From the UHGV virus genome UHGV-0142298: 37,340 bases of DNA; one strand, 5' to 3'. The position numbers and the translations under genes are program-made. The notes below the pieces were generated by a model. It ran no database searches. It worked only from the letters and a program-made list of their open reading frames with translations, and was not told the DNA's origin. Origin of the DNA: a virus. Numbering within the stretch: position 1 is the first letter of the stretch; each line of letters starts with the position of its first letter. This document shows, piece by piece, positions 44-17,473 of this stretch.

Positions 44-1120
44 GTGAGTATGGCTAACGCCTGGCTCAGATTATGGCATGACATGCCAAATGACCCTAAG
101 TGGCGAACAATTGCCAGGGTGTCAGGGCAGCCAATTGCAACAGTGATGGCAGTGTATATCCACCTCCTGGTGAGCGCGTCACGAAATGTCACGCGAGGTC
201 ACATTGATGTCACGACAGAAGATTTGGCAAGTGCGCTCGACGTGACAGAAGAGGTAATTGATTCAATTTTGCAGACGATGCAGGGGCGGGTACTTGATGG
301 TGATTTAATCACTGGATGGGAAAAACGCCAGGTGCTGAAAGAGGACAACGGTAATATTTCGCAAACCGCAAAATCTCCGGCAGAGCGCAAGAGGGCGCAG
401 CGAGAGAGGGAAAGAAAGCGGGAACAAAATGGCGATTGTCACGGCGAGTCACGAAATGTCACGCACATGTCACGACGAGTCACGACAGATAAAGATACAG
501 ATAAAGATACAGATCAAGAAGATCAAAACACTATGGTCCATGGCGTAAAAAACGCCGCGAACCAGGCAGGGGATGTTCAGACCGTCAATCTTGGTCAGCC
601 AGCAGGCACGACACCGGAAGCCGATTCAGCGTATGCGCTGAAAGCCGATTCGGGCGCTGTGCAGCAGGTGATGACCGCAAGGCAGGAGCAATCACACCAA
701 CTTCAGCAGCCTGAAGCCGATTCCGCCATTCAGCGGGAAGCCGATCGGGTAGTCCCGGAAAACACCGGGCAGCCTGTGGGACGAGTGGATTATCCTGATG
801 TGTTCGAACAGGTCTGGCGGGAATACCCGTTGCGTGCCGGGGCAAACCCGAAGAAATCCGCTTTCAGTGCCTGGAAGGCCAGATTACGCGAGGGGGTGCC
901 ACCAGAGGCCATGCTGGATGGCGTGAGGCGTTACGCAAGATACCTGGCGGCTACCGGGAAAACGGGAACGGAATTTGTTCAGCGAGCGACGACGTTTTTT
1001 GGACCGGACCGGAATTTTGAAAACCCCTGGTTGCTCCCGGTAAGCGGTACGAACAACCAGCGTTGTGTGAATCATATTTCTGAACCGGATACCGAAATTC
1101 CACCGGGCTTCAGGGGGTAA
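44..1120 (+). CDS. Phage replication initiator / replisome organizer (O-like), origin iterons inside the gene
   Basis: 358-aa ORF at the left of the late arm; two clusters of GTCACG motifs at about 10-bp spacing lie inside the coding sequence, as ori does inside lambda O; acidic low-complexity linker (DKDTDKDTDQEDQ). Domain family recalled, not searched. Confidence 0.6.
   Translation: MSMANAWLRLWHDMPNDPKWRTIARVSGQPIATVMAVYIHLLVSASRNVTRGHIDVTTEDLASALDVTEEVIDSILQTMQGRVLDGDLITGWEKRQVLKEDNGNISQTAKSPAERKRAQRERERKREQNGDCHGESRNVTHMSRRVTTDKDTDKDTDQEDQNTMVHGVKNAANQAGDVQTVNLGQPAGTTPEADSAYALKADSGAVQQVMTARQEQSHQLQQPEADSAIQREADRVVPENTGQPVGRVDYPDVFEQVWREYPLRAGANPKKSAFSAWKARLREGVPPEAMLDGVRRYARYLAATGKTGTEFVQRATTFFGPDRNFENPWLLPVSGTNNQRCVNHISEPDTEIPPGFRG
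178..214. repeat. Iteron cluster 1 (4 x GTCAC[G/A] at about 10-bp spacing), candidate ori
   Basis: GTCACG at 178, 188, 209 and GTCACA at 198; the 15-mer TCACGAAATGTCACG recurs at 448-462. Confidence 0.55.
438..484. repeat. Iteron cluster 2 (5 x GTCACG at about 10-bp spacing), candidate ori
   Basis: GTCACG at 438, 448, 458, 469, 479, followed by a tandem GATAAAGATACA repeat at 488-512. Confidence 0.55.
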
Positions 1121-1160
1121 GTGTGTATTTCAGGTCATGAGGTAATTTTCAGGAGGACTT

Positions 1161-1586
1161 GTGGCAAAAGTTTTTACACAAGAAGAGCGAGAAAAAATTA
1201 AGGGGCAGGTTGTTGAACTTGTACGTCTGAGTGGTCGCGAGACGTTACGGGCTCTGGAGGCTAAAACCGGTGCATCAAGGTATTACATAAGCACTCTCGC
1301 CAGAGAGCTGGTTGCCAGCGGCGATGTATACAACTCTGGTTACGGATTATTCCCGTCTGAACAGGCTCGTAAGGACTGGCAAAATGCCCGCAAAAAACTC
1401 TCAAGGGCAAAGCTGAAGAAAAAAACATCTGTGGTTGATCCGGACCTTATCTGGTCATTACCTGACGGAGAAATACGTCGCTACGACAGTCGTCTAAACA
1501 TAATCTGTCGCGAGTGCCGGAAGAGCGAAGTTATGCAGCGCATACTGGCATTTTATCAGGGAAATGTTTGGTATTTATTGAAATGA
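1161..1586 (+). CDS. Hypothetical basic protein in the replication module (GTG start)
   Basis: 141-aa ORF beginning at GTG 1161 with AGGAGG 4 nt upstream (1152-1157); occupies the slot where a helicase loader would normally sit but is too small and has no Walker motif. Confidence 0.4.
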   Translation: MAKVFTQEEREKIKGQVVELVRLSGRETLRALEAKTGASRYYISTLARELVASGDVYNSGYGLFPSEQARKDWQNARKKLSRAKLKKKTSVVDPDLIWSLPDGEIRRYDSRLNIICRECRKSEVMQRILAFYQGNVWYLLK

Positions 1587-1826
1587 CGAGATTAAAGAGC
1601 ATTAGTTCAGATATTAATTGACACTTCGGTTGCATAAGACTAGAACTAGTGTGATTGGCATCTTTGTACCAAAAACGGACATTACAGTGTATGGTTAATT
1701 CTGCCTGTCAAATAACTTACATTCATCAAATGATCGAAATTATGACTTAGCTCAACAATTAGGTTTAGCATGGGTCATATGACTAGAGTGTAGCAACTTT
1801 CTGCTATAATTTAATAAGGATAAAAA

Positions 1827-2054
1827 ATGCCAGCTTATGCTAATAAAGGCGGTAATTCGGGTATAGTGTTTTATGAGATTACTCCAGATGCTATCACAGT
1901 ACAGTTTAAAGATGGATGGAAATACGTTTACGATTCTACAAAACCAGGGGCTTCAACGGTCTCTAGGATGAAAGAGTTAGCCCAGGCTGGGCATGGGCTA
2001 AATAGTTTTATTAGTAGTGTGGTTAAGAAAAATTTCTCACGTAAATACCTTTAA
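1827..2054 (+). CDS. Small KTSC-like domain protein (cargo gene)
   Basis: 75-aa ORF in an AT-rich island; TATAAT at 1805-1810 upstream; sequence style (FYEITPDAITVQFKDGWKYVY) recalls KTSC-domain proteins. Confidence 0.45.
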   Translation: MPAYANKGGNSGIVFYEITPDAITVQFKDGWKYVYDSTKPGASTVSRMKELAQAGHGLNSFISSVVKKNFSRKYL

Positions 2055-2207
2055 TTTTAATTGAGGGTGGGAAGGACTATCACCCTCATAATTCTTCACC
2101 ATTCAATCAAGAGCAATTCAAGGTGATTTGCTCTGTACATAGTCGGTTAGTTAGCACTTCGTAATTTATTGAATAGAAGGCTTTTGGAACAGTATCTTCA
2201 CTCGTGC

Positions 2208-2456
2208 TTATCGCCCAGCAGATTTAGCAAGAATAGTCTCGAGCATTTCTGGTACGTTGCCTTTAGCATTGATAGTTGCTGTTCGGTAAGCTAGTTGATT
2301 TTTTGAGAGATTGATTCCTGTAAGTGCTTCAATTTCGTTGCAGGCCTTACCCCATTCTACCCAGTTTTCAGACAAAAAAGATTCAAGATGATCCGCAAAT
2401 ATAGCAATATCATTAGTAACTGTTGCAGCTGGAATATAGACTATGCGAAAAGCCAT
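2208..2456 (-). CDS. Hypothetical protein
   Basis: 82-aa minus-strand ORF in the AT-rich island; no recognised motif; weak RBS. Confidence 0.25.
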   Translation of the reverse strand: MAFRIVYIPAATVTNDIAIFADHLESFLSENWVEWGKACNEIEALTGINLSKNQLAYRTATINAKGNVPEMLETILAKSAGR

Positions 2457-3079
2457 TGGTTGACTACTTCAATGTATCCTGTATCAACAATGAAAATGTC
2501 CGTTCTTCGCTCACAGAATTAGTGCGACAGCTTCGCACCAAGAGCTGACATTGTAATATCCGACAGGCTATTGCCTGTCAGTTAACAGTTACGTGTTATA
2601 AAAGGTCAGGCGGGATCCTGACTAGGTGTGTTTAAAGAAGTGCTGGTGGTGAGCGGGTGTTGTGTCCAATTTCCACAGAAAAAAATCTGAGAAACTATAC
2701 CCAATAGTTGTATTGAATCACTGACGAGACAGCCTCATATTTATCAGGACTGGTGTACTTCCAATTCAGGAGGTTGTCGTGCTGGTTCTCAAATGTGCGC
2801 TAGCTATTGCGGCTGTAATGGCAATTTATTGTCTTGCTGTTGTTCTTACGGATCGCCTTTCTGATTGATTTTATATTGGCGAGGTGACGTGAGTTAAGTA
2901 GAATTGCTGCGGGTGCTTGAGGCTATCTGCCTCAGGCATGAACACCAACGGCAGATAGAGAAAAGCCCCAGTTAACATTACGCGTCCTGCAAGACGCTTA
3001 ACATTAATCTGAGGCCAATTTCATGCTAGACACATGTAGGTTAGCCTCTTACGTGCCGGAAGGCAAGGAGAAGCAGGCT

Positions 3080-3235
3080 ATGAAGCAGCAAAAGGCGATG
3101 TTAATCGCCCTGATCGTCATCTGTTTAACCGTCATAGTGACGGCACTGGTAACGAGGAAAGACCTCTGCGAGGTACGAATCCGAACCGGCCAGACGGAGG
3201 TCGCTGTCTTCACAGCTTACGAACCTGAGGAGTAA
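3080..3235 (+). CDS. hokD: Hok/Gef-family membrane toxin (type I toxin)
   Basis: 51-aa product MKQQKAMLIALIVICLTVIVTALVTRKDLCEVRIRTGQTEVAVFTAYEPEE has the Hok signature (TM helix, LTRK.LCE.R, EVAAF..YE); the ORF track extends it upstream to 3023 (mok-like leader frame); intrinsic terminator follows. Confidence 0.8.
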   Translation: MKQQKAMLIALIVICLTVIVTALVTRKDLCEVRIRTGQTEVAVFTAYEPEE

Positions 3236-3299
3236 GAGACTAGGCGGGGGAGAAATCCCTCGCCACCTCTGATGAGTCAGGCATCCTCAATGCACCCGC

Positions 3300-3326
3300 G
3301 CTTAACCCGCTTCGGCGGGTTTTTCT
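3300..3326 (+). terminator. Intrinsic terminator downstream of hok
   Basis: AACCCGC-TTCG-GCGGGTT hairpin followed by a T-run. Confidence 0.6.
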
Positions 3327-3336
3327 AGCATCTACC

Positions 3337-3376
3337 TGGTTGACAAAGTCGATGTTAAATGGAAATATGGTTGACA
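3337..3376 (+). promoter_or_regulatory. Direct repeat TGGTTGACA x2 (31 bp apart) overlapping -35-like TTGACA boxes; candidate promoter/operator of the 3402-5158 operon
   Basis: TGGTTGACA at 3337-3345 and 3368-3376, immediately upstream of the ATG at 3402. Confidence 0.35.
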
Positions 3377-3401
3377 CCAAAACAACAAGGATATTACGGT
3401 C

Positions 3402-4016
3402 ATGCAGAATTTATCTCAACAGTTGTTAGAAGCATATGACAAGGAGTGCCGCAAAGAGCTTTCGATCGCGTTAGCACAGGCTTATCTTCATTCGCATATG
3501 AAGGCAAAAGAGTTTGGTTCTTTTTGGGCTCAAGCACAGTCATATTTGCGCTGGTTTTATGCCGATGCATTGCTTGAGAATGCGGCTAAGCGTGTGGGGC
3601 TGGATTTTGAAGTCGGTAGCAATGCTGCTAAAAATTGTAAACACATTGCGATTCACTCGAACAACTGGAAAATGACGGCACATCATTTATCGGGTAATGC
3701 GCCACTTCCTAAGCAGGCATTGTATAGAGCTGTTTACGCTAATCAAAATTATGAATTGAATTTTGGGGATGAAAATGCCGACTCCCTGGATGGGAGAGCG
3801 TCTGGTGGACATGTTTATATGTTACATGATGGCAGTAATCAGCACTTGTCCAAACTGAATTTAACTGTTCCTTCTTCGGATAATTACGGGATTCTTTATA
3901 CTGAGTCTTTACCAATTATGACGATGGTAGAAGTTGAAGCAGAAAATGTGGATTCTGAGATTGAAGATAAAATCAAGATTCTTACCGAACAAATAATTAA
4001 ATCACAGCAATCATGA
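3402..4016 (+). CDS. Hypothetical protein, first gene of a two-gene cassette (candidate effector/partner of the HTH-peptidase)
   Basis: 204-aa ORF; its stop overlaps the next start in ATGA (4013-4016), implying translational coupling; no recognisable domain or TM segment. Confidence 0.55.
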   Translation: MQNLSQQLLEAYDKECRKELSIALAQAYLHSHMKAKEFGSFWAQAQSYLRWFYADALLENAAKRVGLDFEVGSNAAKNCKHIAIHSNNWKMTAHHLSGNAPLPKQALYRAVYANQNYELNFGDENADSLDGRASGGHVYMLHDGSNQHLSKLNLTVPSSDNYGILYTESLPIMTMVEVEAENVDSEIEDKIKILTEQIIKSQQS

Positions 4017-5158
4017 GCATGAATATCGCACAAACACCATTTACTGATAAATCGTTTAATCCTCGTCGCCTTGAGGAGGCAAGAGAGGCAAAAGGGTTGA
4101 CGATGGCTGAACTTGCCAGAGTGCTCAATATTTCAAGACAAGCTATTTCGTCATTTGAGAAGGGGTTGAAGTCTCCCTCTGCTGATACACTTTCTGCAAT
4201 AGCCAAGGTGTTAGGATTTCCAGAACGATTTTTCTTAGCCTCCAGTGCTTCTCCATCTCTGGAGGGGGCGATTCATTTTAGAAGTCGTTCAACTGCGACC
4301 AAAAAGGCTCGAGTTACAGGGAAAACACGTGGGCGTTGGGCGGCATTAATATTGGATGAATGTCTAAAATATGCTCAATTACCAGATGTGGTTCTGCCTG
4401 AATTCGATATTATTGATTTTGAGGTTCTGTCTCTATCTGATATTGAGGATATGTCCACCCAATTAAGGCGTTTTTGGGGGTTAGGTGATGGTCCAATACT
4501 CAATTTAACTAGACTTGTTGAAAATAAAGGAATCGTGGTTTCTCATTTACCTTCTGGTGAGAAAGTTGATGCCTTTTCGTTCTGGCATAATGGGCGGCCT
4601 TTAATTATGTTAGATAGCTCGAAGACGGCTGTTCGCATGCGATTTAGTCTTGCTCATGAACTTGGCCATTTAATTATGCATAGGGCAGTGGAGGATGACT
4701 ACCTGAATGATAAAGAATTATTCGACCTGGTGGAGTTGCAGGCCGATTATTTTGCCTCCAGCTTTTTAATGCCAGCCACCACTTTCGGGCGTGAATTTTA
4801 TAGTCCAAATTTATCAGCGTTAGAACGATTAAAACTACGTTGGATTACATCTATCGGTAGTATTGCCATGAGGAGTCATAGCCTTAAGTTAATCAGCGAT
4901 AATCAGAAAAGCTATATATTTAAGCAATTAGCGCCATTCCATCGTAGGGAGCCGTTAGATGATGCAATCCCAAAAGAAGAGCCTGAGTTACTTAATAAGT
5001 TACTTTTACTTCTTGATAAGCATTCAATCATAAAGGTAACTGAGTTAACTGATATCTTTGCTCTTCCCTTAAATGAGTTATCTGCAATTACACGATTTAA
5101 AGAATCAGATATGATTCATTCTGACAATGTTATTTCATTTACCATAAAACAAAAATAA
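4013..5158 (+). CDS. HTH-XRE DNA-binding domain fused to an ImmA/IrrE-type (M78-like) zinc metallopeptidase
   Basis: N-terminal HTH (LTMAELARVLNISRQAISSFEKG); central HEXXH motif in SLAHELGHLIMH with a downstream acidic/aromatic segment (ELQADYFASSFLMP) typical of ImmA/IrrE peptidases. Confidence 0.75.
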   Translation: MSMNIAQTPFTDKSFNPRRLEEAREAKGLTMAELARVLNISRQAISSFEKGLKSPSADTLSAIAKVLGFPERFFLASSASPSLEGAIHFRSRSTATKKARVTGKTRGRWAALILDECLKYAQLPDVVLPEFDIIDFEVLSLSDIEDMSTQLRRFWGLGDGPILNLTRLVENKGIVVSHLPSGEKVDAFSFWHNGRPLIMLDSSKTAVRMRFSLAHELGHLIMHRAVEDDYLNDKELFDLVELQADYFASSFLMPATTFGREFYSPNLSALERLKLRWITSIGSIAMRSHSLKLISDNQKSYIFKQLAPFHRREPLDDAIPKEEPELLNKLLLLLDKHSIIKVTELTDIFALPLNELSAITRFKESDMIHSDNVISFTIKQK

Positions 5159-5195: not shown

Positions 5196-5505
5196 CGTAT
5201 TCTGGTTTACAATCCACAGGCCAGCCTGAACAACTGGCACCTGCTGCGCCAGCAGAGACAACCGATGGCGCACGATACCAAATTACACAATTCTGATGAT
5301 TCTGCCGTCTTTGCCAGCAGGCACGGGCGGCGCTCTCACGCATTTAAATCTGATTGGTACCAGCATCCCCCATGCACTGAAGAACAGGCCGAATGGCTGA
5401 TTCATTCTTACCGCAGGCGCGGGTTCGAGGTTAAGAAAGCTCTCAGTCTCGACTATCGGCACTGGATAATCTCTGTCAGGCTGCCTTATTCCGAACGCCC
5501 ACCAC

Positions 5506-6153
5506 GTGCGTCCCGCACTTTCCAGCAACGGATCTGGAGGTAACGTGCGGGTATTACTTAGACCTGTTCTGGTGCCAGAGCTTGGGCTGGTGGTCCTTAA
5601 ACTAGGCCGTGAATCCATGCCGGTATTCCACAATACCCGGGTACTGGTGGAGCCGGAACCGAAAAGCATGCGTAATCTGCCGTCCGGGGTCGTTCCTGCC
5701 GTTCGCCAGCCGCTGGTGGAAGACAAAACATTGCTGCCGTTTTTCAGTAACGCACGGGTGATTCGTGCTGCTGGTGGTGCTGGTGCATTGTCTGACTGGC
5801 TGTTGCGCCATATTAAATCCTGCCAGTGGCCGCACGGCGATTATCATCACAGCGAAACCGTCATTCACCGTTATGGTACCGGCGCAATGGTGTTGTGCTG
5901 GCACTGCGACAACCAACTGCGTGACCAGACATCCGAATCACTCGAGCAACTTGCTCATCAAAACCTGTCAGCATGGATGATTGACGTCATCGGTCACGCA
6001 ATAAGCGGTACGCAGGAGCGTGAATTATCTCTGGCTGAATTATCCTGGTGGGCGCTCCGCAATCAGGTGGCGGACGCGCTACCGGAAGCGGTATTACGTC
6101 GTTCGCTGGGATTACCAGCGGAAAATTCATACTATATTAGGAATAGTCCATAA
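5506..6153 (+). CDS. Hypothetical Cys/His-rich protein in the position of a late-gene regulator (possible Q-like antiterminator); start uncertain
   Basis: 215-aa ORF from GTG 5506 (alternative ATG 5620); contains HGDYHH...CWHCDNQ; a second frame (5265-5543) overlaps upstream, so a frameshifted or longer gene is possible. Confidence 0.3.
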   Translation: MRPALSSNGSGGNVRVLLRPVLVPELGLVVLKLGRESMPVFHNTRVLVEPEPKSMRNLPSGVVPAVRQPLVEDKTLLPFFSNARVIRAAGGAGALSDWLLRHIKSCQWPHGDYHHSETVIHRYGTGAMVLCWHCDNQLRDQTSESLEQLAHQNLSAWMIDVIGHAISGTQERELSLAELSWWALRNQVADALPEAVLRRSLGLPAENSYYIRNSP

Positions 6154-6243
6154 CAGAAAAATTGTCAGTGATGACGTCAGAAAGGCAATTTATTCCGTGC
6201 ACTACACAGTTTATGTGTTAATGAATTAGTCAAGGGGGAGGAT

Positions 6244-7203
6244 ATGATAAAAAAACCTGTGATTGGAATCAGCGGTTGTTTGGCCGGTTCTGCTGTTCGT
6301 TTTGATGGTGGTCACAAAAGAGCTGACTTTTTAATGGACAAATTAGTGGAATGGGTAACATTCAGACCAGTATGTCCGGAAATGGCTATAGGGCTGCCAG
6401 TTCCGCGTCCTGCTCTACGTCTTGTGCGCTCGAAGCAAGGAAATATACGGATGTGTTTCAGCCACGACCAGAATGAGGATGTGACAGAGAGAATGACAGA
6501 GTTTAGTCGTTCTTATATGCACAAATTAAAGGATGTATCGGGGTTTGTGGTTTGTGCTAAATCTCCCAGCTGTGGCATGGAGCGCGTGCGTGTCTATGAT
6601 GAAAATGGTAATCGAGGTCGTAAAGATGGAGTGGGACTATTTACGAGCACTTTGATGGAAAAGTTTTCCTGGCTACCGGTTGAAGAGGATGGGCGATTAC
6701 ATGATCCAGTGCTTCGTGAGAATTTTGTTGAAAGAGTTTTTGCTTTGCATGAGCTCAATCACCTTTACAAGGAGAAATTATCAAGAAGAGAGTTATTAGC
6801 TTTTCATAGTCGTTATAAGCTTCAGTTGTTGGCGCATAGTCAGGCAGGCTATAAAGATATGGGACCATTTGTGGCTGCAATACACGAGTGGGCGGACCTT
6901 GAATCATACTTTGAGGTGTATCGTGATAAGCTGATGGCGATTCTCAGAAAACCTGCATCACGTAAAAATCACACGAATGTGCTGATGCATATACAGGGGT
7001 ATTTTAGTAATTACTTAAGTACACGCCAGCGTAAAGAGTTGACCGAGGTTATACTTAACTATCGCTTTGGCACATTGCCTCTTCTTGCGCCGTTGACTCT
7101 GCTGAAGCATTATCTGGGTGAGTATCCTAATGATTACTTGCTTACACAGAATTACTTCGATCCCTATCCGGAAGAACTGGCTCTAAGACTGATGGTGAAT
7201 TAA
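6244..7203 (+). CDS. DUF523/DUF1722-like fusion protein (TudS-like thiouracil desulfidase family candidate)
   Basis: 319-aa ORF with RBS GGGGGAGG; N-terminus KPVIGISGCLAGSAVRFDGGHK resembles the DUF523 Cys-containing signature; family assignment is from memory. Confidence 0.6.
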   Translation: MIKKPVIGISGCLAGSAVRFDGGHKRADFLMDKLVEWVTFRPVCPEMAIGLPVPRPALRLVRSKQGNIRMCFSHDQNEDVTERMTEFSRSYMHKLKDVSGFVVCAKSPSCGMERVRVYDENGNRGRKDGVGLFTSTLMEKFSWLPVEEDGRLHDPVLRENFVERVFALHELNHLYKEKLSRRELLAFHSRYKLQLLAHSQAGYKDMGPFVAAIHEWADLESYFEVYRDKLMAILRKPASRKNHTNVLMHIQGYFSNYLSTRQRKELTEVILNYRFGTLPLLAPLTLLKHYLGEYPNDYLLTQNYFDPYPEELALRLMVN

Positions 7204-8513: not shown

Positions 8514-8729
8514 ATGAAATCCATGGATAAGTTAACAACGGGCATCGCCTACAGCACCTCTGCAGGCAGTGCTGGCTACTGGTTTTTACAGTTGCTCGAT
8601 AAAGTCACGCCCTCACAGTGGGCGGCAATAGGTGTATTGGGTAGTCTGGTATTTGGCATGCTGACGTATCTGACAAACCTTTATTTCAAGATTAAAGAAG
8701 ACAGGCGTAAGGTTGCGAGAAGAGAGTAA
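8514..8729 (+). CDS. essQ: Class II holin (phage 21 S-type pinholin-like)
   Basis: 71 aa from [10 protein letters not shown] with two TM segments and a charged C-terminus ([13 protein letters not shown]); directly upstream of a SAR endolysin. Confidence 0.75.
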
Positions 8730-8733
8730 TCCA

Positions 8734-9285
8734 ATGACTCAAGACTATGAACTGGTTGTGAAAGGAGTTCGCAATTTTGAGAATAAAGTGGCGGTAACTG
8801 TAGCCTTACGGGACAAAAAACACTTTGACGGTGAAATTTTTGACCTGGACATCTCGCTGGACCGTGTTGAAGGTGCCGCGCTGGAGTTTTATGAGGCAGC
8901 AGCCAGAAGGAGCATCAGACAGGTCTTCCTGGATGTTGCTGCCGGGTTATGTGAAGGGGATGAGCAGTCGCCGGAAAAGCGCCCCATAATTTTAGAGGCG
9001 CAGAATGTGTGGATAACCTACAAAGGAAAGCTACCGGGAAGAATTACTGGTTCTCTGAAGACGCCACCGACGGCATTGCGGTCAGAAAAAGATGATATTG
9101 AATCGCCCATTGAAAAACTGGAGGGCAGCGTCGCTGATCTGAATAAAAAATTGTCGGTGCTGATTCCTTCTGAAGATGAAAAAAAACGCCGCGATGAGCA
9201 GTTTGCGGCGTTTTACGATTATTGCATTGAAGTTACTCGCAGGAATTTTGTGAAGATTTTTGAGGAGGGTAAATCTCTTCAGTAA
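8734..9285 (+). CDS. Hypothetical protein inserted between holin and endolysin (YdfR/DUF1327-like N-terminus, extended C-terminus)
   Basis: ORF from MTQDYELVVKGVRNFENK; sits where ydfR lies in Qin-type lysis cassettes but is about 80 aa longer; start may instead be 8713. Confidence 0.45.
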   Translation: MTQDYELVVKGVRNFENKVAVTVALRDKKHFDGEIFDLDISLDRVEGAALEFYEAAARRSIRQVFLDVAAGLCEGDEQSPEKRPIILEAQNVWITYKGKLPGRITGSLKTPPTALRSEKDDIESPIEKLEGSVADLNKKLSVLIPSEDEKKRRDEQFAAFYDYCIEVTRRNFVKIFEEGKSLQ

Positions 9286-9493
9286 GCTTATTGGCGGACG
9301 CTGCAATTAATTCAGGAAGGTCCGCAAGGTCATCTGTCAGTGGATATGATGAAAAATCGGCGGCAGTTCTGTTAAGAAGCGCTTTAACTAATTCCTTTTC
9401 CTTCTCCGGCAACAAGTTGATTAGAGCTACGACTGCTTGCCTGAGTGCGATTAAATCAGCAAAAGTTTGTTTAGGTAGATTTGTGTAATCCAT
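9233..9493 (-). CDS. Hypothetical small protein, convergent with the 8734-9285 gene
   Basis: 86-aa minus-strand ORF inside the lysis cassette, overlapping the 3' end of the upstream gene; no motif; could be spurious. Confidence 0.2.
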   Translation of the reverse strand: MDYTNLPKQTFADLIALRQAVVALINLLPEKEKELVKALLNRTAADFSSYPLTDDLADLPELIAASANKLTEEIYPPQKSSQNSCE

Positions 9494-9606
9494 AGTCGCC
9501 TCTGTGTTTATCAGATTGACATCCTCCTCCCGCCAGTGCCCATCACTGGTGAGGTAAGATTTAACATATCCGGGGATTTGAAGCCGATAAATCCTGATAA
9601 ATATCC

Positions 9607-13656: not shown

Positions 13657-15756
13657 ATGGGTTTTTCATCAGCCCGAAATTTGGGAAGGGACATATCGGC
13701 AGGATTTTCCCCACCACGTCGCATGCCGATTTCGGAGGCTGTTAAAAAATTCATGCGTGTTCCCAAGGGGGCTGGTAACTCGGTGCCATGGGATCCTGAA
13801 CTGACACCCTACATCATTGAGCCCATGAACTGCCTGGCATCGCGTGAATACGATGCGGTGATTTTTGTTGGTCCTGCGCGAACAGGGAAGACCATTGGTC
13901 TGATCGATGGATGGATTGTCTATACCATCGTTTGCGATCCTTCGGACATGCTCGTTGTGCAGATGACCGAAGATAAGGCCCGCGAGCATTCTAAAAAGCG
14001 CCTCGACAGAACGTTCAGAAGCAGTGCGGCGGTAAAGAAAAGAATGAGTCCACGTCGTAACGACAATAATGTCCATGATAAGACGTTCAGGGATGGCTCG
14101 TTCCTTAAAATTGGTTGGCCCTCGGTCAACATTATGTCGTCGTCGGATTACCGGTTTGTCGCCTTAACCGATTACGACCGTTTTCCGGAGAATATCGACA
14201 GCGAGGGTGATGGTTTCTCCCTGGCCTCAAAACGTACCACCACATTTATGTCCGCCGGGATGACTCTGGTGGAGAGCTCGCCGGGACGTGACATCTGCGA
14301 CAGCAAATGGCGACGTAAGTCGCCTCATGAAGCGCCACCGACGACTGGTATTCTTTCCCTTTACAATCGTGGTGACCGCCGCCGCTGGTACTGGCCATGT
14401 CCGCACTGCGGTGAATATTTTCAGCCAGCTATGGATGCCATGACCGGCTACCGTAATGAACCGGATCCCTTTAAAGCCAGTGAGGCGGCGTATCTACTTT
14501 GCCCGCACTGCAGCGGCATTATCACTGCGGAGAAAAAGCGTGAGCTCAATAGTGCAGGAGTCTGGTTGCGTGAAGGTCAGGTCATTGATCGTAACGGCAA
14601 CGTTTCCGGTGAACCGCGCCGCTCCCGTATCGCCAGTTTCTGGATGGAAGGGCCAGCTGCTGCGTATCAGACCTGGGCGCAACTGGTTTACAAATTACTG
14701 ACTGCAGAACAGGAGTATGAAGCGACAGGAAGCGAAGAAACACTCAGGGCGGTTATCAACACCGACTGGGGATTGCCTTATCTTCCTCGTGCCAGCATGG
14801 AGCAACGAAAAAGTGAACTGCTTGAGCAGCGGGCAGAGCCAGTTCCTTCCTGCAGTGTGCCGGATGGCGTTAATTTCCTTGTGGCGACAGTGGATGTGCA
14901 GGCGGGACGTCATCGCCGTTTTGTGGTTCAGGTAACTGGCTATGGCAGTCGTGGCGAACGCTGGATTATTGATCGTTACAATATCACGCAGTCATTGCGC
15001 AGTGACTGCGACGGGGAGAGCCAGCGAATTGATCCGGCCAGCTATCCGGAAGACTGGGATGTCCTGCTGACGGATGTTTTTCATAAAAGCTGGCCGCTGG
15101 CCTCCGATCCTTCTCAACAAATGCGACTGATGGCAATGGCGGTGGACTCCGGCGGTGAAGACGGGGTCACTGATAATGCCTATAAATTCTGGCGTCGTTG
15201 CCGTCGTGATGGCCTTGGTAAACGTATTTACCTGTTTAAGGGCGACAGCATCCGGCGCGCAAAACTGATCACCCGTACATTCCCTGATAACACCGGACGA
15301 ACGGGCCGACGGGCGCAGGCCGCAGGTGATGTGCCGCTCTGGCTTCTTCAGACGGATGCACTGAAAGACCGGGTGAATAACGCGTTATGGCGTGACTCGC
15401 CAGGTCCCGGCTATGTGCATTTCCCTGACTGGCTGGGGAGCTGGTTTTACGACGAACTGACGTATGAAGAGCGGAGCAGTGACGGGAAATGGAGTAAGCC
15501 GGGTCGCGGTGCCAACGAAGCTTTTGACCTGATGGTGTATGCCGAGGCTCTGGTCATTCTGCATGGATACGAAAAGATCCGCTGGCCGGATGCACCGGAG
15601 TGGGCGAGCCGGGAAACCTGGCTGGAGTGTGTCCCGGACAGTACCGAACCGTCACCCTCACCGGAACCGGTATCCACGCCTGTTAAAAAACAAAAACGGA
15701 AGAAAACAGTAACTGACGATGTTAACCCCTGGCTGACTTCCGGAGGATGGTTATGA
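13657..15756 (+). CDS. Terminase large subunit (lambda gpA family)
   Basis: 699 aa; Walker A-like VGPARTGKT; size and position match gpA. Confidence 0.85.
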   Translation: MGFSSARNLGRDISAGFSPPRRMPISEAVKKFMRVPKGAGNSVPWDPELTPYIIEPMNCLASREYDAVIFVGPARTGKTIGLIDGWIVYTIVCDPSDMLVVQMTEDKAREHSKKRLDRTFRSSAAVKKRMSPRRNDNNVHDKTFRDGSFLKIGWPSVNIMSSSDYRFVALTDYDRFPENIDSEGDGFSLASKRTTTFMSAGMTLVESSPGRDICDSKWRRKSPHEAPPTTGILSLYNRGDRRRWYWPCPHCGEYFQPAMDAMTGYRNEPDPFKASEAAYLLCPHCSGIITAEKKRELNSAGVWLREGQVIDRNGNVSGEPRRSRIASFWMEGPAAAYQTWAQLVYKLLTAEQEYEATGSEETLRAVINTDWGLPYLPRASMEQRKSELLEQRAEPVPSCSVPDGVNFLVATVDVQAGRHRRFVVQVTGYGSRGERWIIDRYNITQSLRSDCDGESQRIDPASYPEDWDVLLTDVFHKSWPLASDPSQQMRLMAMAVDSGGEDGVTDNAYKFWRRCRRDGLGKRIYLFKGDSIRRAKLITRTFPDNTGRTGRRAQAAGDVPLWLLQTDALKDRVNNALWRDSPGPGYVHFPDWLGSWFYDELTYEERSSDGKWSKPGRGANEAFDLMVYAEALVILHGYEKIRWPDAPEWASRETWLECVPDSTEPSPSPEPVSTPVKKQKRKKTVTDDVNPWLTSGGWL

Positions 15757-15965: not shown

Positions 15966-17473
15966 TGGCAATTCTTGATGATGTGATTGGCGTTTTTTCA
16001 CCAGGATGGAAAGCGGCAAGGCTGCGTTCCCGGGCGGTGATCCAGGCTTATGAGGCCGTAAAAACGACGCGGACACACAAAGCCCGGCGGGAAAACCGAA
16101 CTGCCGACCAGTTAAGCCTCTACGGGGCCGTGTCGTTACGTGAGCAGGCCCGTTACCTTGATAACAACCACGATCTGGTCATTGGTGTATTTGACAAGCT
16201 GGAAGAACGGGTGGTGGGGAAAAACGGGATTATTGTCGAGCCACATCCGGTATTACGCAATGGGGCCATTGCCCGTGATCTGGCAGCGGAGATACGCACC
16301 CGATGGAGTGAATGGTCTGTCAGTCCGGAAGTTACCGGGCAGTTTACCCGTCCGATGCTGGAACGTCTGATGCTGCGTACCTGGCTGCGCGATGGTGAGG
16401 TGTTTGCCCAGATGGTTTCCGGGCGCATAAACAGCCTGACGCCTTCTGCCGGTGTTCATTTCTGGCTGGAGGCACTCGAGCCAGACTTTATTCCCATGAC
16501 CAGTGATGAGAGCAACAGGCTGAATCAGGGCGTGTTTGTTGATGACTGGGGGCGTCCCGAAAAATATCTGGTGTATAAAAGTCGTCCTGTATCCGGACGG
16601 CAGATGGAAACCAAAGAAGTGGATGCAGAGCGAATGCTGCATCTTAAATTTGTTCGCCGTCTGCACCAGATGCGCGGGACGTCTTTATTGTCCGGTGTGC
16701 TGATCCGCCTCAGTGCCCTGAAAGAATATGAAGATTCTGAGCTGACTGCAGCAAGGATCGCTGCTGCTCTGGGGATGTACATCCGCAAAGGCGACGGACA
16801 GAGCTATGAAACGGATGGTAATGACAGCAAGGAGAATGAACGCGAGCTTACCATTCAGCCAGGCATTATTTACGACGATCTGAAACCCGGCGAAGAAATC
16901 GGAATGGTGAAGTCGGATCGCCCCAATCCTAACCTTGAAACTTTTCGTAATGGTCAGTTGCGTGCCGTGGCGGCGGGCAGTCGTCTGAGTTTTTCCAGTA
17001 CAGCGCGCAACTATAACGGCACTTACAGCGCCCAGCGTCAGGAGCTGGTTGAATCCACTGATGGCTACCTGATCCTGCAGGACTGGTTTATTGGTGCCGT
17101 CACCCGCCCGATGTATCGTGCCTGGCTGAAACAGGCTGTGGCATCCGGTGTTATCAGGCTACCCCGCGATCTTGACCGTTCTTCACTGTATACCGCGGTG
17201 TATTCCGGACCGGTGATGCCGTGGATTGACCCTGCTAAGGAGGCTGAGGCCTGGAAAATTCAGATTCGTGGTGGAGCGGCGACAGAATCAGACTGGGTAC
17301 GTGCAGGTGGTCGTAATCCGGATGATGTCAAACGTCGGCGCAAGGCAGAAATTGATGAAAACCGCAAGCTGGATCTGGTATTTGATACCGATCCGGCCAG
17401 TGATAAAGGAGGCAGCAGTGCCGCAACGAAACGACAGGAGCCGCAGCACACCGACGACCAGTCCGAAGAATAA
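15965..17473 (+). CDS. Portal protein (gpB family)
   Basis: About 500 aa from MAILDD; start overlaps the W stop (TGATG); size and order as lambda B. Confidence 0.8.
   Translation: MAILDDVIGVFSPGWKAARLRSRAVIQAYEAVKTTRTHKARRENRTADQLSLYGAVSLREQARYLDNNHDLVIGVFDKLEERVVGKNGIIVEPHPVLRNGAIARDLAAEIRTRWSEWSVSPEVTGQFTRPMLERLMLRTWLRDGEVFAQMVSGRINSLTPSAGVHFWLEALEPDFIPMTSDESNRLNQGVFVDDWGRPEKYLVYKSRPVSGRQMETKEVDAERMLHLKFVRRLHQMRGTSLLSGVLIRLSALKEYEDSELTAARIAAALGMYIRKGDGQSYETDGNDSKENERELTIQPGIIYDDLKPGEEIGMVKSDRPNPNLETFRNGQLRAVAAGSRLSFSSTARNYNGTYSAQRQELVESTDGYLILQDWFIGAVTRPMYRAWLKQAVASGVIRLPRDLDRSSLYTAVYSGPVMPWIDPAKEAEAWKIQIRGGAATESDWVRAGGRNPDDVKRRRKAEIDENRKLDLVFDTDPASDKGGSSAATKRQEPQHTDDQSEE

Follow-up and report, generated by a model that had tools for sequence, protein, structure and literature searches.

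A probable decayed defence cassette between inverted boundary arms in the early region of a Qin-like prophage of Escherichia coli

Results

An AT-rich segment in a variable slot of the prophage

The viral genome UHGV-0142298, a stretch of 37,340 nucleotides (nt) that is called the window below, is a Qin-like lambdoid prophage of Escherichia coli, and its positions 1500-3400 are 100% identical to E. coli Ch1. We analysed an AT-rich segment behind the replication genes of this prophage (1662-2516), which contains a gene of 75 codons on the plus strand (1827-2054) and, convergent to it, an open reading frame (ORF) of 82 codons on the minus strand (2208-2456). RefSeq annotates both as hypothetical proteins. 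In E. coli Ch1 the gene order is exonuclease, dicB, ydfA, repressor/Cro, YdaT, replisome organiser (44-1120 in the window), DUF977 (Ren-like; 1161-1586), the two “hypothetical proteins”, hokD, two further genes, DUF968 and the gene for antiterminator Q. In lambda, this position between the replication genes and Q is that of the nin region.

The G+C fraction is 0.514 for positions 44-1586, drops to 0.360 (1587-1661) and 0.377 (1662-2516), and rises again to 0.433 (2598-2890) and 0.523 in the hok/sok locus. Only 7.4% of the 855-nt segments across the window are as AT-rich as 1662-2516, and further AT-rich islets are present elsewhere in the window. An original prediction, made from the sequence of the window, had described an AT-rich island of foreign cargo at 1590-3000, in the slot equivalent to the nin region. 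The drop in G+C content was confirmed, and horizontally acquired DNA is indeed found between the replication genes and Q. The limits had to be narrowed, i.e. the foreign DNA is confined to 1662-2516 (or extends to 2597, if an allele-specific piece of 80 nt is included). The conserved backbone of the prophage follows at 2598-2890, and 2891-3000 is already part of hok/sok.

In comparison with the PCN061 prophage (stretch L003), which has a DUF5677 gene as cargo, homology extends to 1683 (window 1001-1683 corresponds to 3505-4182, ~89% identity) and is back at 2620 (94.9%), or from about 2598 if the alignment is inspected by eye. The spacer behind the DUF977 gene (1587-1661, 36% GC) is part of the backbone, with ~89% identity to prophages bearing other cargo. 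A non-phage genomic island of Yersinia enterocolitica (L009), which also bears antirestriction, RadC and CbtA/CbeA genes, matches the window over 1663-2437 and 2436-2516, with 90-94% identity across the cassette.

The cassette was found in 28 of 5,426 complete E. coli genomes, whereas the flanking DUF977 gene was present in 4,071 of them, so that the same genes do not occupy this position in most relatives. In sampled prophages the same slot contains other cargo, i.e. a DUF5677 gene, a gene for a RelA/SpoT-domain protein or methyltransferase genes. The reading as cargo stands because of this difference between 28 and 4,071 genomes and because of the other cargo at the same slot. One could argue that the AT-rich DNA is native, i.e. 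a conserved nin-like part of the backbone that was never imported, as both adjoining backbone regions, 1587-1661 and 2598-2890, are likewise AT-rich (36-43% GC). For 1662-2516 this view is already refuted by its presence in just 28 of the 4,071 backbone-bearing genomes and by the identity shared with the non-phage Yersinia island, and we assign virtually no probability to it.

Among the other slot alleles, E. coli strain 104 encodes a RelA/SpoT-domain protein of 341 amino acids (aa) (L139, 5936-6961), which might be a CapRel-like fused toxin-antitoxin; the DUF5677 protein was seen in L003 and L138.

The minus-strand reading frame is the stump of an OLD-family nuclease gene

The original prediction had listed the 82-codon ORF as a gene. 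The ORF exists at 2208-2456; however, it is not a gene of its own but the 3′-stump of a deleted gene for an OLD-family nuclease, a known kind of anti-phage gene. Its residues 8-82 are identical at 74 of 75 positions to the C-terminus (residues 552-626) of a 626-aa nuclease of the commensal isolate E. coli SCU-113. The stump proper covers 2208-2434 on the minus strand (codons 552-626 and the stop codon), and it is fused to former upstream region of the nuclease gene (2435-2456, minus strand), which provides a chance ATG and 7 codons (MAFRIVY).

Alignment of the DNA and BLAST showed that the window is collinear with SCU-113 (L002) except for 1,722 bp that are missing (window 1001-2437 corresponds to 5502-6938, and window 2435-3323 to 8661-9549). 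The missing DNA comprises the first 551 codons, with the start codon, and about 70 nt in front of them, and no microhomology was found at the junction between 2434 and 2435. The intact cassette of SCU-113 (6164-8742 in L002) has a length of 2.58 kb and is 93.7% identical to the Yersinia island (5836-8420 in L009). Three of the 28 cassette-bearing E. coli genomes (SCU-113, N61 and MB06231) retain the intact 626-aa “ATP-dependent nuclease”, convergent with the 75-codon gene. The other 25 share the deletion junction of the window, and two of these have an additional insertion sequence, IS3, in the stump.

The intact 626-aa protein matches the PADLOC model Old (1.3e-55, residues 212-528), and Pfam AAA_15, AAA_21 and OLD-like Toprim domains are found in its relatives. 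As the stump aligns to residues 552-626 alone, the N-terminal ABC-type ATPase domain is deleted; the Toprim domain is missing as well, since the stump starts past the Old match. The 82-aa ORF has no match of its own in Pfam, PADLOC or PHROG, and reading of the sequence revealed no Shine-Dalgarno motif in front of its ATG. The nuclease-based defence is presumably dead in the window, and the 82-codon ORF has the appearance of an untranslatable chance ORF.

In SCU-113 and Yersinia the intact allele resembles the Class 1 (stand-alone) OLD nucleases, the prototype of which is Old of phage P2, in that it encodes a single 626-aa ATPase/Toprim protein and, in SCU-113, is carried as prophage cargo. In contrast, residues 552-626, i.e. 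the tail beyond the Toprim domain, are all that remains in the window. A further difference is that close relatives in Citrobacter and E. coli H6 have a DUF2130 gene after OLD, and OLD nucleases of the SCU-113 type may not always be stand-alone. In Citrobacter freundii (L042, 5621-9120) and E. coli H6 (L143, 3366-6658), the OLD protein is 73-80% identical to that of SCU-113 and the DUF2130 gene overlaps or abuts its gene, which suggests a two-gene OLD-DUF2130 variant that is not known to be among the described OLD classes.

The 75-codon gene is intact and under purifying selection

The plus-strand gene is intact, and an AAGGA motif (1816-1820) lies 7 nt upstream of its ATG. The ratios of non-synonymous to synonymous substitution rates (dN/dS) versus eight homologues were 0.09-0.19, where they were computable. 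The gene is therefore real and under strong purifying selection. It encodes a basic protein (pI 9.65), which has 29 close homologues (65-95% identity) across the Enterobacterales, nearly all of them 75 aa long. A profile search retrieved 1,701 cluster representatives.

The AlphaFold model (predicted local distance difference test 88.5) contains three strands, two helices and a short final strand (beta3-alpha2-beta). The protein matches the unnamed family PHROG 17428 (8e-20); a match to PHROG 24656, “virion structural protein”, was also observed. A Foldseek search against the viral models of BFVD revealed template modelling (TM) scores of 0.91-0.94 to a domain of virion structural proteins of the Pseudomonas jumbo phages 201phi2-1, PA7, Phabio and PhiPA3, with 32-38% sequence identity. 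In these nucleus-forming phages the fold is one domain in proteins of 230-770 aa (B3FJW3, I7CN88, A0A1Y0SU98 and F8SJK7).

The protein had been labelled KTSC-like. No Pfam match was found up to E = 10, and it is not a member of KTSC (PF13619); as a description of a remote resemblance of the fold, the label is fair. KTSC domains comprise about 60-75 residues and have a YxY motif. In the family of the 75-aa protein, Y33 and Y35 are invariant both in 28 and in 87 sequences, so that a central YxY of the KTSC type is present. KTSC is also the commonest weak Pfam match of the relatives (17 of 87, all sub-threshold, best E 0.0099). The similarity thus includes the size, the invariant motif, the order of three strands followed by helices, and weak matches of hidden Markov models. 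Foldseek comparisons with four phage proteins annotated as KTSC yielded TM scores of 0.56-0.61 (probability 0.98-1.0, E 0.014-0.08), whereas the domain of the jumbo-phage virion proteins is far closer. With Foldseek, nothing in the PDB was found at E ≤ 0.001, and 7x8c, a “KTSC domain-containing protein”, was outside the top 50; a sequence-profile search against the PDB returned noise plus 7x8c at E 0.36. The literature on “KTSC” consisted of passing mentions, e.g. a passage in PMC9503650 calls the domain DNA-binding, and a passage in PMC8541194 repeats the suggestion of Pfam that it binds RNA. No functionally tested member of the 75-aa family was found in the literature searched.

A conserved leader and a hairpin frame the gene

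The original prediction had placed the gene under a promoter of its own, represented by TATAAT at 1805-1810. This hexamer is present and, with a TG two bases upstream, forms part of an extended -10-like element on the plus strand (TGCTATAAT, 1802-1810). It is unconserved in all eight aligned homologous loci: the Yersinia copy, which is 90% identical, has TGCAGTAAT at that site and reads CAGTAAT, and the other loci are unrelated there. A consensus promoter scan did not list TATAAT because a -35 element is missing, and a transcript starting about 7 nt after TGCTATAAT would begin inside the Shine-Dalgarno motif.

The non-coding region 1694-1826 (plus strand) is a conserved leader and regulatory region of the gene, with the blocks TTACATTCAT..GAAATTATGACTTAGCTCAACAA and CATATGACTA. 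A region of about 110 nt upstream of the gene is kept in seven of the eight aligned loci (blocks at about 1715-1760 and 1775-1785), the proteins of which are 68-80% identical and the contexts of which are unrelated. No clear sigma-70 match was found in it. Further upstream, the backbone spacer contains a perfect TTGACA (1618-1623), followed after 17 nt by TAGAAC (element 1618-1646), and TTGACA is found in other slot alleles, too; judged from the sequence, this pair may be a rightward promoter into any cargo in the slot.

Between the convergent genes lies a G+C-rich hairpin (2062-2088; 9-bp stem, RNAfold -13.9 kcal/mol). Inspection of the alignment by eye indicated that a hairpin is retained here in most homologues, with stems of differing sequence, e.g. 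GGGTG/CACCC, AAGGGG/CCCCTT and GGGCGG/CCGCCC. It was not listed by a consensus terminator scan because it lacks a T run. The hairpin is probably a bidirectional terminator, and it would provide the terminator of its own that is typical of a prophage moron.

A palindrome had also been noted, at 2563-2581. GACAGGC-TATT-GCCTGTC is present at 2562-2579, within the allele-specific piece (2517-2597), which also contains a degenerate third arm (2531-2552, plus strand; see below for the arms). This piece was found solely in the 28 E. coli genomes with the cassette, plus one partial match, and in alignments the Yersinia copy and the other slot alleles lack it. By our own estimate, a segment of 1.4 kb should contain ~0.5 stems of 7 bp by chance, similar small dyads occur nearby, and the palindrome together with a neighbouring hairpin folds at -16 kcal/mol. 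The palindrome is thus at chance level and restricted to this cassette allele. We rejected a role as operator or terminator, as the palindrome is allele-specific, lacks a T run and is not part of the transferred cassette.

Taken at face value, the original prediction amounts to an intact island of two genes, i.e. a KTSC gene and an 82-codon gene, with TATAAT as promoter and the palindrome as operator. Both ORFs and both motifs are present at their places, and the RefSeq annotation includes both ORFs. This view is already contradicted and is very improbable, because the 82-codon ORF is composed of OLD residues 552-626 plus 7 chance codons without a ribosome-binding site, matches no family in Pfam, PADLOC or PHROG, and neither TATAAT (unconserved in the aligned homologues) nor the palindrome (outside the mobile cassette, allele-specific, at chance level) qualifies.

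Inverted arms mark both ends of the transferred DNA

Both ends of the cassette coincide with a 22-nt sequence, called arm in the following. The left arm is of the “GTGCC” type (CTTTGTACCAAAAACGGACATT, 1662-1683, plus strand); the DNA shared with Yersinia begins at 1663, and the DNA shared with the DUF5677 allele stops at 1683. The right arm is of the “GAGCG” type (AATGTCCGTTCTTCGCTCACAG, 2495-2516, minus strand), and the DNA shared with Yersinia stops at 2516. The two are mutually inverted, and the left arm is 78% complementary to 2495-2517. The same pair, with “GTGCC” left and “GAGCG” right, was found at the DUF5677 allele (L138, 5497/6759) and at the RelA/SpoT allele (L139, 5505/7190). In phage P2 (L159, 1341/3430), CTCTGTGCCAAAAGCGGACCTT at 15340-15361 and AACTTCCGCTTCTCGCTCAAAG at 17429-17450 bracket fun(Z). 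The cassette thus has the configuration of the Z/fun type, i.e. one arm of each type, inverted, exactly where the transferred DNA (1663-2516) begins and ends. The Z/fun locus of P2-like phages is a variable locus with inverted repeats around its cargo. It is reportedly subject to site-specific recombination, as the title of an article by Nilsson, Karlsson and Haggard-Ljungquist (Mol Biol Evol 2004, 21:1-13) implies. Passages of PMC3448106 and PMC13100340 cite this article.

We also determined the distribution of the arm pattern. In a 5.4-Mb E. coli chromosome it was found solely at the two ends of the cassette and at one weak, chance-like match. By our count, 301 Enterobacterales genomes contained ~90 matches, compared to 6 for the reversed control. 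These matches were clustered, and many formed (-)/(+) pairs about 28 nt apart, which are equivalent to two successive hairpins (GTCCGCT-loop-AGCGGAC). In Pantoea-like genomes, such twin-hairpin units of ~70 nt are located between accessory genes of an ordinary kind (chemoreceptor, efflux pump, GNAT, DsbA). An exact 24-mer was found in 89 stretches, mostly of Pantoea, Erwinia, Enterobacter and Kluyvera. The twin-hairpin units of three loci matched no Rfam family.

Two explanations of the arms have to be considered. They might be sites at which cassettes are exchanged, or they might be copies of a dispersed twin-hairpin repeat similar to repetitive extragenic palindromes (REP), so that ordinary recombination, either homologous or illegitimate, would exchange the cargo at such portable stretches of homology and no dedicated site-specific system is involved. 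The latter explanation is suggested by the units between ordinary accessory genes in Pantoea-like genomes, by the exact 24-mer in several genera, and by the fact that no recombinase gene travels with the cassette in the E. coli and Yersinia annotations. On the other hand, three unrelated slot cargos and P2 fun(Z) each have one arm per type in the same orientation, homology breaks within ~20 nt of the arms, and arms in E. coli are essentially limited to such cassettes. Judged by its title, the article by Nilsson et al. also speaks for a site-specific mechanism. We regard the explanation by a dispersed repeat as having nearly an even chance.

Several other identities were discarded. The core motifs of integron attC sites and of the ends of Tn3, Tn21, Tn402 and Tn7 differ from the arms, the cassette is not bordered by target-site duplications, and neither a transposase nor an integron integrase is encoded nearby. 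The arms are not REP elements distributed across the E. coli genome, as the chromosome has the two cassette arms and one chance-like match. The idea that the 75-codon gene is part of the boundary machinery is unsupported, because most homologous loci have no arms.

In E. coli KD0845 (L140), the prophage gives way past the left arm (5497-5518) to genes annotated as a BCCT transporter, a DUF2254 protein and a LysR regulator, and a second arm follows 3.7 kb further on. The left arm may here mark a truncation of the prophage or another large cassette.

Relatives of the 75-codon gene adjoin diverse defence genes

About 14 non-redundant contexts of relatives of the 75-codon gene in mobile elements were examined. 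The neighbours include OLD in E. coli and Yersinia, DUF2130 plus OLD in Citrobacter, a PDC-S06 ATPase in Kosakonia, an EcoRII restriction-modification system in a P2-like prophage of Erwinia, an AbiJ-like protein, a NERD nuclease, D5-type primases of P4-like elements, and integrases. In one relative the 75-aa domain is fused to a TIR domain. In an IMG/VR contig (L156, 6388-8236), a 75-codon gene with 93% identity precedes 19 aa that remain of the OLD C-terminus, and next comes a defence gene for a dCTP deaminase (PADLOC 5.3e-127). To judge from this arrangement, the cargo beside the 75-codon gene has been replaced and the gene itself kept.

The Citrobacter OLD protein and its 75-aa neighbour are each ~80% identical to the E. 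coli pair; therefore, the linkage of the two genes is old, but not obligatory. One possibility is that the 75-aa protein is a dedicated partner of OLD (a regulator, sensor or antidote), and that the copy in the window is a functionless orphan that has yet to decay. It would account for the linkage in two diverged lineages, i.e. E. coli/Yersinia and Citrobacter (with DUF2130 in between), and all E. coli copies are near-identical, so that the deletion may be recent. However, relatives with 68-80% identity adjoin unrelated defence genes or none, the OLD plus DUF2130 island of E. coli H6 has no annotated 75-codon gene beside it, the IMG/VR contig kept the 75-codon gene while OLD was replaced by dCTP deaminase, and the two genes are convergent and not co-transcribed. 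We thus consider a dedicated partner of OLD rather unlikely. Instead, we tentatively propose, with low confidence, a role of the 75-aa protein as a small accessory factor of defence islands, which would bind nucleic acids and function without depending on OLD. Its basic charge, its KTSC-type fold, the strong purifying selection and the many different defence neighbours point in this direction, as does the fusion to TIR in one relative.

Features between the cassette and the antiterminator gene

The backbone resumes at 2598-2890 (plus strand), upstream of hok, and this part is also found in the phages Tritos, Evi and mEp460. It contains an unannotated ORF for a hydrophobic peptide of 29 aa (2779-2868, VLVLKCALAIAAVMAIYCLAVVLTDRLSD), which has a GTG start codon 5 nt past a perfect ribosome-binding site (AGGAGG). 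The ORF recurs in four further prophage backbones, and most of the changes in it are conservative. Its sequence suggests that it may encode a small membrane protein or a peptide similar to type I toxins.

The locus at 2891-3330 (plus strand), which lies outside the island, is a hok/mok/sok type I toxin-antitoxin locus, with a Hok toxin ORF, an overlapping mok frame and a sok antisense region. The toxin encoded at 3080-3235 is identical to HokD (Pfam HOK_GEF, 3e-23), Rfam sok was detected at 2911-3085 with 115.8 bits (cut-off 59), and the locus is 94% identical to the annotated mokW/hokW/sokW of phage 933W. In an Rfam scan of 1400-3500, sok alone was above the threshold.

Further downstream (3402-5158), two overlapping genes for proteins of 204 aa and 381 aa match the PADLOC models RmrT (7.5e-10) and RmrA (5.5e-102), respectively, and the 381-aa protein is composed of HTH-XRE and an M78/ImmA peptidase. 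By these matches the two genes constitute a toxin-antitoxin defence system of the Rosmerta type, which SCU-113 and PCN061 lack. Its site of insertion lies between hok/sok and the 92-aa/DUF968 genes.

Discussion

The results indicate with good confidence that positions 1662-2516 are a decayed, arm-bounded defence cassette in a slot of a Qin-like prophage, consisting of a live 75-codon gene and a dead nuclease gene. The original mobile cassette of ~2.6 kb comprised a self-contained 75-codon gene, with its leader and terminator hairpin, and a convergent gene for a 626-aa OLD ATPase/Toprim nuclease. It would have arrived by exchange at the two 22-nt inverted boundary arms. A later deletion of 1,722 bp removed the promoter-proximal region of the nuclease gene, its start codon and the first 551 codons, so that the 75-codon gene is presumably the sole part still able to act.

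Several points weigh against this interpretation or parts of it. The junctions at the arms fit homologous exchange as well as site-specific exchange, so that the alignments do not separate the two, and the genes that these arms flank in Pantoea-like genomes are ordinary accessory genes. The silence of the stump and a promoter of the 75-codon gene are predictions from the sequence. In Buttiauxella and Ewingella the gene has no recognisable defence neighbour, and its association with defence genes could reflect shared residence in cargo hotspots. Nucleic-acid binding was deduced solely from the fold, the charge and the literature on KTSC.

The cassette can be compared to two known types of variable loci. 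Like the morons and defence hotspots of P2/P4 and lambdoid prophages, it is an AT-rich self-contained unit in a fixed slot, the contents of which vary among related prophages, and the adjacent slot after hok likewise holds a defence system, i.e. Rosmerta (RmrT/RmrA). In contrast to these, its defence gene has been destroyed and the surviving small gene has no assigned function. It shares with the Z/fun locus of P2-like coliphages the two arm types and their orientation around AT-rich, non-essential cargo of the defence type. However, the slot of P2 lies between the tail genes G and FI, whereas the slot described here is located in a lambdoid early region, between the Ren-like gene and hok/sok, and the cassette comprises two convergent transcription units.

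A more far-reaching proposal combines two assumptions, namely that the family of ~75-aa proteins with a KTSC fold (at least 1,701 clusters, no Pfam model) is an unrecognised accessory of anti-phage islands, and that the arms are sites of cassette exchange that function without an integrase of their own. We regard this combination as speculative and on balance doubtful. If it were true, the 75-aa family would be small nucleic-acid-binding sensors or modulators that occur together with OLD, dCTP deaminase, PDC-S06, EcoRII, AbiJ-like and NERD proteins and in a TIR fusion, and the arms would move such genes among P2-like phages, lambdoid prophages and genomic islands.

For annotation, the results mean that the 82-aa “hypothetical protein” of RefSeq is a pseudogene fragment. 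Considered alone, the locus exemplifies the routine turnover of defence genes in a prophage hotspot, i.e. import from another genus followed by breakage through deletion. The three E. coli genomes with an intact cassette and the 25 without the nuclease constitute a natural experiment for the 75-aa family. Finally, the 22-nt arms of P2 fun(Z) also delimit cargo in a lambdoid early region and in a Yersinia island, which is relevant to the shuffling of defence genes among unrelated mobile elements.

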